Positions 3,716 through 10,126 of a stretch of 64,000 bases of DNA are shown here, in pieces. The position numbers were made by a program, and so were the translations under genes. The stretch spans positions 274,630-338,629 of the forward strand of contig CAYPEN010000002.1 in the NCBI GenBank assembly GCA_964409875.1, given 5' to 3'. Source of the DNA: an uncultured Gammaproteobacteria bacterium (GTDB taxonomy: Bacteria; Patescibacteriota; Microgenomatia; Levybacterales; GWA1-39-11). The notes under the pieces were generated by a model, which was not told where the DNA came from, did no database searches, and saw only the letters and a program-made list of their open reading frames with translations. The number at the start of each line of letters is the position of its first letter. Positions within the stretch are counted from its first letter, which is position 1.

Positions 3716-4104
3716 GGGGATGAATTGAATCGACAGGAACTGTACTTTAAAAACTGCAAGCCGGCAATGACTCAAAGCCGTAAAAAAGGGTCAAAAATAC
3801 ATGCTAACAATACTGTTAGCGGTATAAAGCGGTTCTTCGCGGATCGCATTCCGGATGTAAATCCGGGATTAGGTTACGCGGCATTCGCCTAATACCTGTT
3901 TGCTTCCATTCCGCCTCAAGCTCGGGGAAGCAGGCATCAACCAGCTTGAAAACTTAACGGGGCTGACCGAACCGTTTCGCAAAAGGTCTTAGCTGTTTCA
4001 TTCTGCGTTTGGGAGGTCAGAAACGGCAAAATATATCTCAAACTACGCTTGTAGATGTTTTTGAATATGGTTTTTGGACGCCGGTTCGTTACCGGCCATC
4101 TCCA
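3716..4104 (+). ncRNA. ssrA: tmRNA (SsrA)
   Basis: The 5' end GGGGATGAATTGAATCGACAGG parallels E. coli GGGGCUGAUUCUGGAUUCGACGGG. The 3' end GGACGCCGGTTCGTTACCGGC-CATCTCC-A parallels GGACGCGGGUUCAACUCCCGC-CAGCUCC-A, with the acceptor strand complementary to the 5' GGGGATG including a G3-U pair. An internal tag reading frame ends ...PGLGYAAFA followed by TAA at 3890-3892. Confidence 0.8.
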
Positions 4105-5605
4105 CACCAGTGTTTTTTGAAGTTGCTAAATTACCGATTAGCTTGACAGGATAGGCCAAACTTGCGGTTCCAAAGCCATTCTTGTAGTCATATTCAACTT
4201 TTCCGTTAAAATAAGCGTATAGAACAGCTTTCTTATCGTTCACATTTTCACTTTGCCACATATCAATAGGATTTTTTAGCAGTGAAAATAGTTTTTCCGT
4301 AGCGGTTCCAAATCTTTCGTCATTGTAGGGGTTGGATATTAACTCCATATCAATAGACCTAATCTCTTGAGAGTATTTTTCAATTTCGTTTTCATAAACC
4401 TTAATTAAATCTTCACTTGAGGCTTTAGTTATTCGTTCAAGTAGACTTGAAACTTTTGCTTCTAATTCAACTTTTCTATTTAAGTAAAGTTGTCTAATCT
4501 CCTCGTAGCTATTTTTCTTTAAGTTCCATGCTTCTGTTAACACTAATTTTGCAACGTCTAAAATCGTGTTATCTAACCTAACCTTGTATAATAATGCTTC
4601 GAATTGGTCCTCCATGCTTTTCCTTCCTATAACCTTATACTTGTACTTGCAATACTTATTGATACAGAAATAATTGGGATATCTACGACCATGACGACCA
4701 GTGTTCCAAGATGCTGTAAGAGGCTTATTGCACGAAACACAGATAATATGAGTTCGTAATGGAAAATCACTTGAATAGTCGTGTCTTGTCCATTTTTTCC
4801 CTTTTGACCTTATTCTTTGTTGGACTTTTTCGTAGGTTTCAATTGTTATAATGCCTTCATGATGACCTTTTCGCCTCTCTACACTCCATTTAGGGTACTC
4901 CACGTAGCCTGTATATAGTATTTGCCTAAGTATTCGCTGGGTACCGCTTAATGAAAGTTTTTTAGTTATACCATGCTCTTTATATTTGTTGAGAATAAAT
5001 CTCTGAACATCTTCCTGAGTGTTCAGAATACCCACGGCGTAATTTTCTAATGCAGTTTTAATGATAGAAGCGTATGGTTCGACGGGTTTTAATAGCTTCC
5101 CGTGGATAGGGTCTTTAACAGCTGAGAGGCCCAGGGGTGGAAAAAAGGCCCAGTAGCCCTTCTCTAATCGTGCTTTTTGCTTCTGAATAACCTGTCTTCT
5201 ATTGGATTTACGTTGATACTGATTGCTAACGGCTAACATTAGCTCAGCCATTTCGCTCTCATCACTTTCTTCAAAGTTGAAGTTCAAACATTCTAGTCTT
5301 ACCCCTCTAGAGGAAAACTCCGCCCTAAGTTGGATATGAACTTTAACGTCTCTTGCAAACCGTGATAAATCATCAAATATTATTACGTATTCTTCTAATG
5401 TATGGTTATCGATATATTGGATAAGTTGCTTCATGGCAGGCCTTTCAAATAAACCACCGCTTATACCGTCATCAGGAAATACTGCTTCTACGGGATAACC
5501 TTTTTGGACTGCATGAACCCTGCATCTTTGCTCTTGGGAGCTCAAACCATTACCTTCCTTAACCTGCCTCTGACTAGAAACCCTACAATAGATAAGTGCC
5601 TTCAT
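4043..5605 (-). CDS. Large serine recombinase (serine integrase type)
   Basis: N-terminal resolvase catalytic domain (LIYCRVSSQRQ with the Ser nucleophile), a recombinase domain, a Cys-rich zinc ribbon (ICVSCNKPL...CINKYCKYK) and a C-terminal coiled coil. The last roughly 20 codons overlap the tmRNA T-arm and acceptor. Confidence 0.9.
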   Translation of the reverse strand: MKALIYCRVSSQRQVKEGNGLSSQEQRCRVHAVQKGYPVEAVFPDDGISGGLFERPAMKQLIQYIDNHTLEEYVIIFDDLSRFARDVKVHIQLRAEFSSRGVRLECLNFNFEESDESEMAELMLAVSNQYQRKSNRRQVIQKQKARLEKGYWAFFPPLGLSAVKDPIHGKLLKPVEPYASIIKTALENYAVGILNTQEDVQRFILNKYKEHGITKKLSLSGTQRILRQILYTGYVEYPKWSVERRKGHHEGIITIETYEKVQQRIRSKGKKWTRHDYSSDFPLRTHIICVSCNKPLTASWNTGRHGRRYPNYFCINKYCKYKYKVIGRKSMEDQFEALLYKVRLDNTILDVAKLVLTEAWNLKKNSYEEIRQLYLNRKVELEAKVSSLLERITKASSEDLIKVYENEIEKYSQEIRSIDMELISNPYNDERFGTATEKLFSLLKNPIDMWQSENVNDKKAVLYAYFNGKVEYDYKNGFGTASLAYPVKLIGNLATSKNTGVEMAGNEPASKNHIQKHLQA

Positions 5606-5773
5606 GTATTTTGTTTATGTACCTCTGAGTCAATTATATTATTACAAAGCAACCGAAGAGAAAAAAGAAGGTTTTCAATGTCAGTATCAGGCATTTTTTC
5701 TGCCCTGGTACAGAGCGCTTTTCTGACTTCTTGTACAGTGAGTCGTTTTGCGTTACTTTTTTCAGCCACCATA
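5602..5773 (-). CDS. Small HTH protein, candidate excisionase/recombination directionality factor (56 aa, absent from the ORF track)
   Basis: Read on the minus strand as MVAEKSNAKRLTVQEVRKALCTRAEKMPDTDIENLLFSLRLLCNNIIDSEVHKQNT. Its stop TGA overlaps the recombinase ATG (ATGA coupling). The segment LTVQEVRKAL looks like the first HTH helix of Xis/MerR-like proteins. Confidence 0.4.
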
Positions 5774-6038: not shown

Positions 6039-7070
6039 TTACGCAAGGGTCAATAGAAGTTGAATCAATACGAGGAAACAAGCGATAAAAACGACTAGCC
6101 ATAAATCAGCCTGAAAGACTTCTTTTCTTTTAATGCTATTAACAAAACTCCAAATACTTGAGGCCATAAGAATTAGACCCAATAGCACTAAAACCACAAA
6201 TAATATAATGCTCCACATGTGGGAAAATACAACTTTTTTTACACTGAAATCTTGCTGAGAGTTTTCCTCTACCTTTTTTGAGGCTGCAATTAATTGAATT
6301 GCTTGCTGATTTGAATTGTTTAATAACGATGAAAGTCTACTATCGTTTGGTCGCTCTTTTGCAGCTTCTTTATACCATTCGGTATCAGTTGACGTTTTGC
6401 CTGCATAAATTCTAGCCCGAATCATCTGGTCATTTAATTGGTTTCTGTATTCTGGAAAGGCGTTCATAAAAGCGTTATTTCTTAGCGAGAGTAGAATAGC
6501 TTCTGATTGCCGAGATATATTCAATTGTTTTTGATGCATGTCTATTACATCTTGGAATAACCTATTGTTTTTAATGATTGAAGTGTCAATTCTATCCTTT
6601 AAGGCATCAATTGTTTTCTCGTTACTTCCTAACTTCTCAAAATTCTTAAGAAATAATTTCGATAAGTCTGACTGAGATAAGATACTTTGGTTAATAACAA
6701 AGACAATAACAACATAAAGCACACTTACGAATAGTGTCAATAATTTAAGTAACTTTAAGATAAAAGTGCTTTCTTTTTTAGCTGGTTGTTCTATTAATTG
6801 CTGTTCCAAATACACGATGTACACTATGAAGGAAATTAGAGGTACTATAATTGCAAAGATTTGCCATAAACGTGAGTGCTTTGATGGGTGTTTTTTTAGA
6901 GAATAAGTAATTGCAAACCAACTTAAACCCCCCGCTAATATCGAAGCTAAAATTTCATTTTTAATAATACAAACAGACGCTATTATTAAAATTAGCCATA
7001 TAATACGGCCGCTTCTCTTATTTATAAATTGTTCAAATAACTTCATATACGTTAACGAGATATTTCTCAA
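6039..7070 (-). CDS. Hypothetical polytopic membrane protein (island cargo)
   Basis: About 4 N-terminal and 2 C-terminal hydrophobic helices flank a coiled-coil-rich soluble middle domain. No known motif was recognised. Confidence 0.5.
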   Translation of the reverse strand: MRNISLTYMKLFEQFINKRSGRIIWLILIIASVCIIKNEILASILAGGLSWFAITYSLKKHPSKHSRLWQIFAIIVPLISFIVYIVYLEQQLIEQPAKKESTFILKLLKLLTLFVSVLYVVIVFVINQSILSQSDLSKLFLKNFEKLGSNEKTIDALKDRIDTSIIKNNRLFQDVIDMHQKQLNISRQSEAILLSLRNNAFMNAFPEYRNQLNDQMIRARIYAGKTSTDTEWYKEAAKERPNDSRLSSLLNNSNQQAIQLIAASKKVEENSQQDFSVKKVVFSHMWSIILFVVLVLLGLILMASSIWSFVNSIKRKEVFQADLWLVVFIACFLVLIQLLLTLA

Positions 7071-7245
7071 TAATACTTCCAGCCTAGATCAAACGCAAGG
7101 CTATGAGTCCAAATAAATGCTCTTTTAGGCTAGTGGATTGAGCACAATTGGCTTTCAATAATTACCGTATATTACCACCCATAAATACATGTACGAACAC
7201 CAAATTTTTTCAGGTATAATCTAGCAGTCAGAATATAGAAATTCT

Positions 7246-8076
7246 ATGCATAAAACAACACAAAAACGAGTTGATGAGTTGCTTAAAAAGATAAATAGCC
7301 AGCCACCTTCACCAGTCATTACAGGAATATACAAATATCAAGAGGAACACATTACATGGCTAACAAAAAATTACTGGGGATTCACAAAATATTTTGAGGA
7401 AAGTTATGATTTTTTTGTTAATTTAGTAAGTTCGGTTAACTTTATCAATAAAGACAAGTGGAAATGGAATTTGAAATTACCTTATATTTATCTTGGAAAT
7501 TCAACTTATCCATTGTTTAAGTCGTTCACCTTATTGTCCGAAGGATTTTATGATGAGTCGCTTGCACTTTCAAGAGTATCTTATGAGCTCTTAATTAAAT
7601 CGCTGTTTTGCATTCTACATCCAGATGATGCATTTGCAACTTACCAAAAGCCAGAAAAAGGGAAACTAGTATATAACTTAACAAATTTTGTTAAGGATGA
7701 TCTGAAAGTCGATTGGGAATTTCTTTATCGTTTATCATCAGCATCATCTCATGGAAAGCTATATTTTACTAAAATTATAAGTGATAGTAGGGAAAAAGGT
7801 AAACATCAAAACATAGGGTTACAACTAAGGCTTGATGAAAAATCAGCTCAAATTAATATGAACTATCTAACTTTCTTGATTTGGACTCATATTTATTTAT
7901 TCACTGTAATATTTGATGACATTGTTCCTACTAGAAAAATAAATAGTGCTGTTAAAAAAGAGGCGAATGACTACATTAAAATACTAGGGAATATTGTTAA
8001 AGGAACTCCAAATAGTTTTTCTGGAGTCGGAATCGATTTTGAAAGGATTATCAAGAAAGTTAAAGTACAAAAATGA
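7246..8076 (+). CDS. Hypothetical protein (island cargo)
   Basis: 276-aa ORF in AT-rich DNA, divergent from the membrane protein gene. No recognisable motif. Confidence 0.45.
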   Translation: MHKTTQKRVDELLKKINSQPPSPVITGIYKYQEEHITWLTKNYWGFTKYFEESYDFFVNLVSSVNFINKDKWKWNLKLPYIYLGNSTYPLFKSFTLLSEGFYDESLALSRVSYELLIKSLFCILHPDDAFATYQKPEKGKLVYNLTNFVKDDLKVDWEFLYRLSSASSHGKLYFTKIISDSREKGKHQNIGLQLRLDEKSAQINMNYLTFLIWTHIYLFTVIFDDIVPTRKINSAVKKEANDYIKILGNIVKGTPNSFSGVGIDFERIIKKVKVQK

Positions 8077-8158
8077 ACCGTTGCATCAAATCCGTTCCAA
8101 TAGTATCTTTCTATAAAGTCTTGATAAAAGTGAACGCGATGTTAAAAAGTCTTTTTAA

Positions 8159-8578
8159 TTATGCTGGAATTGAAAATGAGATGGAATCTTTTTTTATCAA
8201 CTGAGACAATAATTCTGCTTTTAACACTTCCGATAATAAAATAGCATCTTCTTTGTGCCTATTCTTCAAATAAATTGTATTATCCTTATTGTTAAACAGA
8301 TCTTTGAATCTTTTAAACTTAACATCGTGCGTCGTTAAATTGGTCTTATAATACTCGATGAATAACCCTCCCAGGTTTGAATCTTTATCTATATACATTG
8401 AGAATTCGTTGTTTAATGAAAATAAAGAAAATTCAGGGCTAATTTGTTTGGGCGAAAGACTGAGAGAATCCAAGTCAGCATCATAAGCAAAGTGCCAATT
8501 TTTATTTGTAGCAATAGTTTCTATTTCTGCTATCTGTGATTCTAATTTTTTTGTATTTACTTTTATGGACGTTTGCAT
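8159..8578 (-). CDS. Putative DUF2283-like antitoxin partner
   Basis: HFAYDADLDSLSLS and MYIDKDSNLGGLFIEYY resemble the DUF2283 pattern YDxEaDaLyI...lDlDedGrlvGIEi. It sits immediately downstream of, and overlapping, the DUF4258-like gene. Confidence 0.35.
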   Translation of the reverse strand: MQTSIKVNTKKLESQIAEIETIATNKNWHFAYDADLDSLSLSPKQISPEFSLFSLNNEFSMYIDKDSNLGGLFIEYYKTNLTTHDVKFKRFKDLFNNKDNTIYLKNRHKEDAILLSEVLKAELLSQLIKKDSISFSIPA

Positions 8579-8913
8579 GGTTCTTTAAAATACTTCTCTT
8601 CCTTAATGTTTGTAGGTCTAAAACCCGTGATTATGATATATTTGTCTTTCGTTTTTTGTACTACTACTTTAGTGTATCTCTTTATTCCTTCAATCTCAAA
8701 TTCGTAATAATAGTAACAAAATCTTTGACGGTTATCGTAGGCAGGATAAATGCAGAGCGGGTTGATTATAGCACTTTTCATCCGATCAAGAAAATTCGTT
8801 ATCAATAGTTCGGGATGAATACCCTTGTGTTTATCGTAGTTTTCTTTCGTAAATATATATCTTTTTCCATCGGAATCCTTAAAATCTAAGATAAGTTCAT
8901 CATCATTAATCAT
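8563..8913 (-). CDS. Putative DUF4258-like (RelE-fold) toxin
   Basis: The C-terminal YIIITGFRP resembles the DUF4258 signature (vITvYrP). It overlaps the downstream gene by 16 nt, giving a bicistronic pair. Confidence 0.4.
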   Translation of the reverse strand: MINDDELILDFKDSDGKRYIFTKENYDKHKGIHPELLITNFLDRMKSAIINPLCIYPAYDNRQRFCYYYYEFEIEGIKRYTKVVVQKTKDKYIIITGFRPTNIKEEKYFKEPCKRP

Positions 8914-9050
8914 TTTCCGAGTATATTCCCTCCATTTATTAGTGTCAAATTATATAATGTTTCAAACTCTCTCATGTGTATACTTCTCCTCATTTTTGCA
9001 CGTTATTTCAGGCGTAAATATTCTGATAGCTTCTGGTGATATAATCGTGA

Positions 9051-9683
9051 ATGTGGTTCCAACTTTCTGTAGAGATGTCCACACGTCTTAGATGTAACGG
9101 TAATTTACATTACCTATCTCCAAACAATATGCGTGGTGAAAGAGAGAAGACTCCAGATGTTGATACGGTCCTTGTAGAGGATACCGACCTGTTTTTTAAC
9201 CTTCTAACATTAGCTGATGATTTAGGAGTCGGCTTTAATCACCTAGCTCAAAACTTTATAAATGCAGCCTTATTAGTTAGAGAAATACATGCAGCAGAAA
9301 AGGAGTCTGTTGTGAAACGGACAAGTGACGGACTAACTGAAATTGACCCTTACGAATTATTGGTTCAAGCGATAACAAAACCAATTATTGATAACAAAAT
9401 AAAATATCGCAAAGATTACCAATTGGGGCCATTAACTTTCAGTCCGCCTATATATTTGCATAAGGGTGCAAAGATAATATCGCAAGCCAACTCTTTGGGG
9501 TCACAAAACCATTTGCAAGAATTAAGCTTAGAATTGGGCGTAGGGGTCGATTCCGTAATAGGAGGAATGTTGCATTGGGGATATGAACAGGCAAGAGAAG
9601 AGTTGGGTGGTGTATCAAGCTTAATGATAAAAAGAGATGAGACAAATAATATTATTCTTACCTTAATTCCAATTACTAAATAA
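9051..9683 (+). CDS. Hypothetical protein (island cargo; the true start may be the internal Met at about 9129)
   Basis: ORF-track entry with no recognisable motif. It ends 2 nt before the smpB stop (convergent). Confidence 0.4.
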   Translation: MWFQLSVEMSTRLRCNGNLHYLSPNNMRGEREKTPDVDTVLVEDTDLFFNLLTLADDLGVGFNHLAQNFINAALLVREIHAAEKESVVKRTSDGLTEIDPYELLVQAITKPIIDNKIKYRKDYQLGPLTFSPPIYLHKGAKIISQANSLGSQNHLQELSLELGVGVDSVIGGMLHWGYEQAREELGGVSSLMIKRDETNNIILTLIPITK

Positions 9684-9685
9684 TT

Positions 9686-10126
9686 CTAAATGAGATTTTT
9701 GAGCTCGCGTTCGCGATCCCGCTCAATTGCCTGCTGTTTTACATCTTTTCGCCTTTCGTAGTCTTTTTTTCCTTTTGCAAGTGCAACTTCCAATTTAAAA
9801 CGCCCATGTTTTTCATAAAGGGAGAGTGGGGCAAGGGTATATTTTCCGGTTTCAAGCTTGTTTTTGAGGCTCAGAAGCTCCTTTTTATGAAGCAAAAGGC
9901 GGCGGGTTCTGTCTTCCTGGTAATTTTCTACACGCGAGAATTTATAAGGGAAAATTTTGGCATTGATAATATATGCCTGCCTGGACATTATTTTCACATA
10001 TGAGCCCGAAAGGTCCGCATGGCCAAGACGTATGGCTTTTACCTCAGACCCCAAAAGTTCGATTCCTGCCTCGAATTTTTCTTCAATTTTGAATTTTTGC
10101 GGCGCGGTTTTATTGAAAATTTTCAT
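9686..10126 (-). CDS. smpB: SsrA-binding protein SmpB
   Basis: FEAGIELLGSEVKAIRLG...RRLLLHKKEL...GKYTLAPLSLY...KLEVALAKGKK match conserved SmpB blocks. Confidence 0.9.
   Translation of the reverse strand: MKIFNKTAPQKFKIEEKFEAGIELLGSEVKAIRLGHADLSGSYVKIMSRQAYIINAKIFPYKFSRVENYQEDRTRRLLLHKKELLSLKNKLETGKYTLAPLSLYEKHGRFKLEVALAKGKKDYERRKDVKQQAIERDRERELKNLI

Follow-up and report, generated by a model that had tools for sequence, protein, structure and literature searches.

A predicted toxin-first BECR nuclease cassette with a DUF2283-type partner among the cargo of a small serine-recombinase element at a tmRNA gene

Introduction

The BECR-fold family DUF4258 appears among the predicted type II toxins, and none of its members has been characterized experimentally (PMC11980606). 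It has been assigned to the superfamily of RelE and ParE (Gerdes 2025) and has also been moved to the BECR fold's colicin-like branch (bioRxiv 10.64898/2026.08.28.747851). PBECR2 and PBECR3 are phage BECR ribonuclease (RNase) domains that occur in polyvalent proteins (Iyer et al. 2017); PBECR2 occurs in large phage polyvalent or MuF/portal-fused proteins and also as solo phage proteins, and the active site of PBECR and colicin D-like RNases consists of a His from the N-terminal helix together with a C-terminal Thr or Ser (PMC5512222). YuzE, a protein of the DUF2283 family, has been called a predicted antitoxin, with UniProt given as the source (PMC12521503). Here we analyze two overlapping genes with distant likeness to these families in a 64,000-nucleotide (nt) stretch of contig CAYPEN010000002.1 (positions 274,630 to 338,629 of the forward strand; GenBank assembly GCA_964409875.1), which we call the window and in which all coordinates are given. 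DUF4258, PBECR2, and PBECR3 are all families of BECR-fold RNases. Genes for DUF4258 and DUF2283 proteins are often neighbors; our literature search found no paper describing the pairing.

The original prediction, made from the letters of the window and its open reading frames (ORFs), had described positions 6039 to 9683 as the cargo of an island beside a tmRNA gene: a membrane protein, a 276-amino-acid (aa) protein, a DUF4258/DUF2283-like pair of the toxin-antitoxin type, and a 210-aa protein, which might together form a defense or addiction module. From the analysis reported below, we consider it likely that the region belongs to a serine-recombinase element at the tmRNA gene and that it carries a toxin-first type II toxin-antitoxin or immunity cassette alongside independent genes.

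Results

The predicted toxin, a 116-aa BECR-fold endoribonuclease of DUF4258/PBECR2 likeness recognized by the Pfam matches and invariant residues of its orthologs, is encoded at 8563..8913 on the minus strand. The predicted antitoxin or immunity protein, 139 aa long and recognized by family profile matches to a DUF2283-like beta core, is encoded at 8159..8578 on the same strand. The toxin gene lies upstream and the two genes overlap by 16 nt. The cassette was present in nine distinct loci, on the same strand, toxin first, with overlaps of 4 to 28 nt and with differing neighbors. Word-indexed searches returned few homologs, at 50 to 60% identity, and every contig on which they found a homolog of the 139-aa protein carried an overlapping same-strand gene for 114 to 128 aa directly upstream. 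A scan of genomes and metagenomes with a narrow antitoxin alignment yielded one genome locus and five metagenome loci. The pairwise identity matrices of the two proteins were correlated (Mantel r = 0.85, p = 0.004), and toxin and partner are therefore inherited as a unit. In one further locus (P0078; L024:374-1024), a single ORF of 216 aa combines two-thirds of the toxin, from its N terminus, with a complete antitoxin domain. Adjacency and overlap in nine loci, correlated divergence, and this fused form lend indirect support to the proposal that the pair is of the toxin-antitoxin type.

The settings of the cassette copies are diverse. The neighbors are an IS1595 transposase and an XRE-type helix-turn-helix (HTH) gene at locus L001, NUDIX and TP_methylase genes at L002 to L005, an IS1595 transposase at L006, and a DUF3800 gene at L019. 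At L013, in a Woesebacteria genome, the cassette lies between genes for ClpB and a hydrolase, with a HIT-like gene also near, and no recognizable mobility gene stands near the copies at L015 and L018. Two small, adjacent, co-oriented genes have been kept together across unrelated contexts, which fits a type II module. In a distant cassette (L021 to L023, L021:1322-4784), a remote member of the partner family (P0100) has directly before it an overlapping 136-aa gene with weak toxin-like similarity and after it genes for MerR, DUF4325, and AbiEi/AbiEii. A short DUF2283-like relative of 71 aa (P0128; L020) is not paired with this toxin. tblastn searches of phages and plasmids returned nothing for the toxin, the antitoxin, or this short relative, and a DUF4258-positive ortholog used as the query gave one nonsignificant match (E = 8).

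Several of these loci have features of their own. The neighborhood of the distant cassette, with its MerR-type HTH gene, DUF4325 gene, and AbiEi/AbiEii pair, resembles a small defense or toxin-antitoxin island; at L022 the toxin-like gene upstream is shortened to 83 aa. The fused ORF lacks the C-terminal strands of the toxin and is either a natural fusion with toxin inactivation or an assembly or frameshift artifact on a 1.5-kb contig. On the Logan contig of L006, ARAGORN identified an 86-nt tRNA with the anticodon TTA, which would read the stop codon UAA, just upstream of the toxin homolog (L006:373-458); it is possibly a suppressor tRNA and could hint that the organism or the element uses recoding.

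The 116-aa window protein is basic (isoelectric point [pI] 8.9), and its sole Pfam match was to PBECR2 (E = 1e-3; 19.7 bits against a cutoff of 27.1). DUF4258 (PF14076; gathering score, 25 bits) gave no match to it at E ≤ 10. Among its orthologs, the one at L013 (50% identical) passed the DUF4258 threshold (27.1 bits against 25; E = 5.1e-6), the one at L006 reached 19.1 bits for the same family, and the one at L015 (56% identical) passed the threshold of PBECR2 (PF18810; 29.7 bits against 27.1). Across the family of eight orthologs, PBECR2 was matched by five members, DUF4258 by two, and PBECR3 (PF18812) by one. Because two orthologs pass the Pfam thresholds of DUF4258 or PBECR2, we regard the 116-aa protein as a predicted RNase of the BECR fold, and its homology to DUF4258 follows transitively, through close orthologs. 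Eleven residues (G16, N25, H33, I49, Y56, C66, Y68, T81, K82, I94, and E105) are invariant in the eight orthologs, down to 27% identity, and from this pattern we infer that H33 with T81/K82 forms the catalytic set. An AlphaFold2 model of moderate confidence (predicted local distance difference test [pLDDT], 75.6; built from two sequences) comprises a beta-hairpin, three helices, and three long strands; it places H33 in the region of helix 23-37 and T81/K82 in strand 77-87.

The partner family is larger. An exhaustive profile search with the antitoxin alignment gathered 132 cluster representatives, most of them 130 to 150 aa long. The 139-aa window protein, which is mildly acidic (pI 6.3), had no Pfam match of its own, DUF2283 (PF10049) included. 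In the resulting 133-member family, DUF2283 was the only recurrent Pfam match (11 of the 133; best E = 1.4e-3), other families being matched by two members at most. Three of these matches, inspected singly, scored 15.0 to 17.8 bits and covered profile positions 1 to 46 of 49. The matching region is the core W28-YD-x3-D-x-L ... G-x-F-IEY that had drawn attention to the protein in the first place. An AlphaFold2 model built from 133 sequences was confident (pLDDT 89.7; predicted template modeling score, 0.83) and showed two N-terminal helices, a five-strand beta core at residues 29 to 75, short helices, and a long C-terminal helix at 109 to 129; the DUF2283-like beta core corresponds to approximately residues 28 to 76. 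Matches of the antitoxin profile to eL6 chains in the PDB (E about 0.007) were judged spurious.

Both peptide motifs quoted in the original prediction were found. YDADLDSLSLS...LGGLFIEYY lies in the 139-aa protein as described; ...KYIIITGFRP is present at residues 91 to 100 of the 116-aa protein and is not, as had been read, at its extreme C terminus. The designation of the pair as DUF4258-like and DUF2283-like holds as a distant family relationship; it does not hold as formal membership.

Transcription of the cassette probably starts at a promoter-like site, TTGACA-17 nt-TATACT (8920..8948, minus strand), which is the best match in the region (11 of 12 positions). The site is only suggestive, because such sites are no more numerous in the region than expected from shuffling. 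Because it ends 7 nt short of the toxin ATG, transcripts of the pair could lack a leader. A GGAGGG stretch falls within the promoter spacer and is not at Shine-Dalgarno distance from the toxin start codon.

We place the cassette at the cargo-bearing end of a small integrative element, about 5 kb long and driven by a serine recombinase, that probably occupies the 3′ end of the tmRNA gene. That gene (ssrA; 3716..4107, plus strand) was identified by ARAGORN and, at full length, by Rfam RF00023 (118.8 bits, E = 1.1e-46); it is presumed to be the integration target. The integrase, a large serine recombinase of 520 aa (4043..5605, minus strand), scored above cutoff for two Pfam families, Resolvase (81.4 bits) and Recombinase (24.4 bits), and matched the PHROG 95 integrase family (E = 2e-60); matches to a Pfam Zn ribbon and to NCBIfam XisF/Ccr-like families were below cutoff. 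Its ORF closes with 65 nt that form the reverse complement of the tmRNA 3′ end (4043-4107, on opposite strands), and because of this overlap the left end of the element is implied. A 56-aa ORF (5602..5772, minus strand) overlaps the recombinase start by 4 nt. Very weak matches to Pfam HTH_68 (E = 0.015) and to PHROG 6474, a family of recombination directionality factors (E = 0.41), hint that it may be a small HTH protein or a directionality factor, that is, the excision or regulatory factor of the element; its exact product is absent from the public protein collection. On the far side, SmpB, identified by Pfam, is encoded at 9686-10126 on the minus strand.

GC content is 0.30 to 0.31 across 6500-9000, against a mean of 0.395 (standard deviation [SD], 0.038) for the other long ORFs of the window, and the four cargo genes between 6039 and 8913 lie about 2 SD under those ORFs. 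The only marker of the right end of the element is a GC step at about 9000. The recombinase/tmRNA overlap, the position of smpB, and the low GC bear out in outline the earlier picture of a cargo-carrying integrative element at the tmRNA gene. Among named organisms, Candidatus Woesebacteria assemblies supply the nearest relatives of the cargo proteins, and the window looks like part of a Woesebacteria-like genome of the candidate phyla radiation. At L011 and L012, a related serine recombinase of 513 aa overlaps the 3′ end of a tRNA-Pro(tgg) gene in the same geometry (L011:12377-12454), and at L011 a 15-nt copy of the tRNA-Pro T-arm, a repeat of the 3′ end, lies 6.5 kb away (L011:5830-5844) and delimits that element. 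These results suggest a lineage of small serine-recombinase elements aimed at the 3′ ends of tRNA and tmRNA genes, in the source genome and in related metagenome contigs. The tag peptide of the window tmRNA is predicted to be unusually long, at 29 residues (ANNTVSGIKRFFADRIPDVNPGLGYAAFA; window 3803-3892).

All five cargo ORFs lie where they had been placed. Homologs at 50 to 60% identity back the 116-, 139-, and 276-aa ORFs as real genes. The lengths of 343 and 210 aa given for the other two are those of maximal ORFs; the public protein collection has products of 335 aa (6039-7046) and 184 aa (9129-9683), for which length as an ORF in AT-rich DNA is the only sign that they are real genes. The sole other copy of these two ORFs is on a near-identical 3-kb contig (L008), which covers 340 residues of the membrane protein and, of the 210-aa ORF, just the first 19 codons. 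As anticipated, no cargo ORF matched a housekeeping family, and none passed a curated Pfam or NCBIfam threshold. Searches of PDB chains by sequence and profile returned nothing for the 116-, 139-, 276-, 335-, and 184-aa proteins, IMG/VR scans showed no relatives of the 276-, 184-, and 335-aa proteins, and no PADLOC-DB 2.0 family matched any of the seven island proteins at E ≤ 1.

The 276-aa soluble protein (7246..8076, plus strand) is weakly DUF5677-like, with a match below threshold (PF18928; E = 2.3e-5; 24.9 bits against a cutoff of 27.1) that spans residues 94 to 133 and profile positions 19 to 59 of 166; DUF5677 matched two of four homologs. Three homolog clusters at 55 to 58% identity were found, one from a Candidatus Woesebacteria genome. 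Their loci (L009, L010, and L011) have differing neighborhoods, that of L011 being the serine-recombinase element at tRNA-Pro, and none of the three carries a relative of the membrane protein. An all-against-all comparison of their ORFs showed no conserved neighbor of the 276-aa gene, which is therefore a recurrent solo passenger of serine-recombinase elements. The protein also has a motif, YRL(S/P)S(A/G)(S/A)HG, in which R162 and H169, with six residues between them, are invariant in all four homologs; the spacing fits the Rx4-6H signature of HEPN RNases, a comparison of little power with four sequences at 55 to 75% identity.

The membrane protein (6039..7070, minus strand; ORF and hydropathy) is an orphan. 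Its Kyte-Doolittle profile has hydrophobic segments at about 18-58 (two spans), 65-93, 100-133, 276-313, and 316-343, in agreement with the predicted four-plus-two topology: six spans around a polar middle of about 140 residues. It passed no threshold in Pfam or NCBIfam and had no match in PADLOC, PHROGs, or PDB sequences, and limited searches (the loci of the 276-aa homologs, PDB, and IMG/VR) detected no homolog outside the source organism. The second orphan, the 210-aa ORF (9051..9683, plus strand), ends 2 nt before the convergent smpB gene and had no match in any family library or PDB. Its GC content of 0.375 (z = −0.5 relative to the other ORFs of the window) is unlike that of the four low-GC cargo genes. 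Because it has host-like GC and abuts smpB, the 184-aa ORF may be a host gene rather than part of the island.

The proposal that the five genes form one module was not supported: they lie on alternating strands, do not co-occur elsewhere, and match no PADLOC model. Nor was the pairing of the membrane protein with the 276-aa protein as abortive-infection effector and sensor, relatives of the two co-occurring in none of three independent loci. We conclude that the cargo is a set of independent genes and not one coordinated system; a coordinated defense system is not supported by the cargo analysis.

Discussion

Under the reading that we prefer, a toxin-antitoxin cassette on a serine-recombinase element, the 116-aa protein would be a metal-independent endoribonuclease that uses His33 with Thr81 and Lys82, and the 139-aa protein, its gene translationally coupled to the toxin gene, would bind the nuclease and block it. 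As long as both proteins are made, the RNase would be held inactive. If the element were lost or its expression stopped, the partner would decay and the RNase would be free to cut tRNA, rRNA, or mRNA, leading to growth arrest. Arrest upon loss would stabilize the element, and the cassette could secondarily abort phage infection. Addiction is the obvious role on an integrative element, and abortive infection is possible but unsupported.

A number of results weigh against this reading. The window toxin and its partner are themselves under every curated Pfam threshold, and all DUF2283 matches in the partner family are below the gathering score of 23 bits. The toxin model, built from two sequences only, did not confirm the BECR fold, and Foldseek comparisons of it with PDB and BFVD gave no significant match and none to a BECR protein; the antitoxin model had no Foldseek match in PDB at E < 0.1. 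The target and toxicity are extrapolated, because no DUF4258 toxin has been characterized (PMC11980606). Most, though not all, type II antitoxins regulate their own genes through a DNA-binding domain, and neither the 139-aa protein nor its close homologs matched an HTH, ribbon-helix-helix (RHH), or AbrB family; no inverted-repeat operator was found near the promoter-like site. The partner gene occurs without a toxin gene at L017. A second copy of the tmRNA 3′ end was not found in the window by a three-mismatch pattern, blastn-short, a repeat finder, or an Rfam E-value scan, and, as regards a known defense system, no PADLOC model matched.

A bolder version of the preferred reading would make the cassette an undescribed toxin-antitoxin family, found mainly in Woesebacteria genomes and metagenome contigs, that joins a colicin-like BECR clade bridging DUF4258 and PBECR2 to an extended, DUF2283-derived antitoxin with neither a DNA-binding domain nor a structural relative in PDB, and that could serve abortive-infection defense as well as addiction. 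AbiEi/AbiEii genes adjoin one distant cassette copy, and the tmRNA island holds another. We advance this version tentatively and think that it probably claims too much.

An improbable alternative is that the pair is a decayed or nontoxic remnant, the 116-aa protein being an inactive BECR domain that binds RNA, as proposed for MuF-C of phage Mu, with no role in addiction or defense. Inactive PBECR domains are documented (PMC5512222), the window toxin scores below the Pfam thresholds, and the truncated toxin fused to its partner at L024, together with the orphan partner gene at L017, indicates that the toxin gene can be lost. Decay is, however, hard to reconcile with the invariance of H33, T81, K82, and eight other residues in eight orthologs down to 27% identity, and the intact, overlapping state of both genes in nine loci argues for selection on both proteins.

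We give very little credence to the idea that the 139-aa protein regulates the element in the manner of FseA/QseM of ICEMlSymR7A and that the 116-aa protein is an excision-control partner and no toxin. Its appeal comes from DUF2283-domain proteins that act as transcriptional activator and antiactivator of the excision of an integrative and conjugative element (PMC4755241), from the location of the pair in an integrative element with a recombinase, and from a partner family far larger than the set shown to be paired. Yet the cassette also occurs away from recombinases, among housekeeping genes (ClpB, hydrolase, and HIT-like at L013) and beside IS elements, the family of the upstream protein reaches nuclease-family thresholds, and no DNA-binding domain was found in either protein. 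That all five genes, or the membrane and 276-aa proteins together, constitute one anti-phage system in which the 276-aa protein senses and the membrane protein kills is the hardest to credit: the two genes are divergent neighbors 175 bp apart, low in GC, and inside an integrative element, and DUF5677 is statistically enriched beside serine recombinases in Bacillota in a screen for defense genes (bioRxiv 10.1101/2025.10.07.681051), but the DUF5677 ORF tested there was not among the five that reduced phage plaquing, L009, L010, and L011 have neither a relative of the membrane protein nor another common neighbor, no PADLOC model matches, and the limited searches detected no homolog of the membrane protein outside the source organism.

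Toxin-antitoxin modules on integrative elements are common, and in this respect the finding is an ordinary one that would not surprise a specialist. It is of modest interest in that DUF4258-like toxins are uncharacterized and the antitoxin family is large and without structural relatives. Should the preferred reading hold, the cassette would offer a compact, experimentally tractable example of the DUF4258/PBECR2 BECR nucleases and would for the first time give a function, that of antitoxin, to an extended DUF2283-like family of about 130 sequence clusters. As to the setting, small serine-recombinase elements are present at tmRNA or tRNA 3′ ends in the Woesebacteria-like genome of the window and in a related metagenome contig; their cargo consists of shuffled single genes, among them a DUF5677-like gene that recurs.

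Compared with described systems, the pair adds a divergent new example to a predicted kind of module, in which a BECR toxin carried on a mobile element has a DUF2283-type partner. Like DUF4258 proteins, the 116-aa protein is a small, basic alpha/beta protein encoded in a two-gene cassette, and a 50%-identical ortholog passes the gathering score of that family; it differs in that the window protein itself has no DUF4258 match and has PBECR2 as its best match. The literature table for DUF4258 gives an antitoxin-toxin order and partners of the MqsA or HicB type, whereas here the order is toxin-antitoxin and the partner is DUF2283-like. PBECR2 and PBECR3 are the best profile matches for most members of the toxin family, and the family's invariant His and Thr are consistent with the His...Thr/Ser active site described for PBECR RNases. 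In contrast to PBECR2 domains, however, the protein here stands alone at 116 aa, has a dedicated downstream partner, comes from contigs of the candidate phyla radiation type, and matched no phage or plasmid record. The partner shares with the DUF2283 proteins YuzE and FseA/QseM the core motif W-x3-YD-x3-D-x-L ... G-x-F-IEY, a small, beta-rich build, and a gene beside a toxin-like gene; its family is about twice as long (130 to 150 aa) and has helices at the N terminus and a long helix at the C terminus. The antitoxins of the toxin-first systems HigBA, BrnTA, and gp49-HTH, whose toxins are also of the BECR kind, carry HTH or RHH domains, unlike the partner here, in which none was detected, but the cassette resembles these systems in its upstream toxin, its overlapping downstream partner, its carriage on a mobile element, and the occurrence of fusions.

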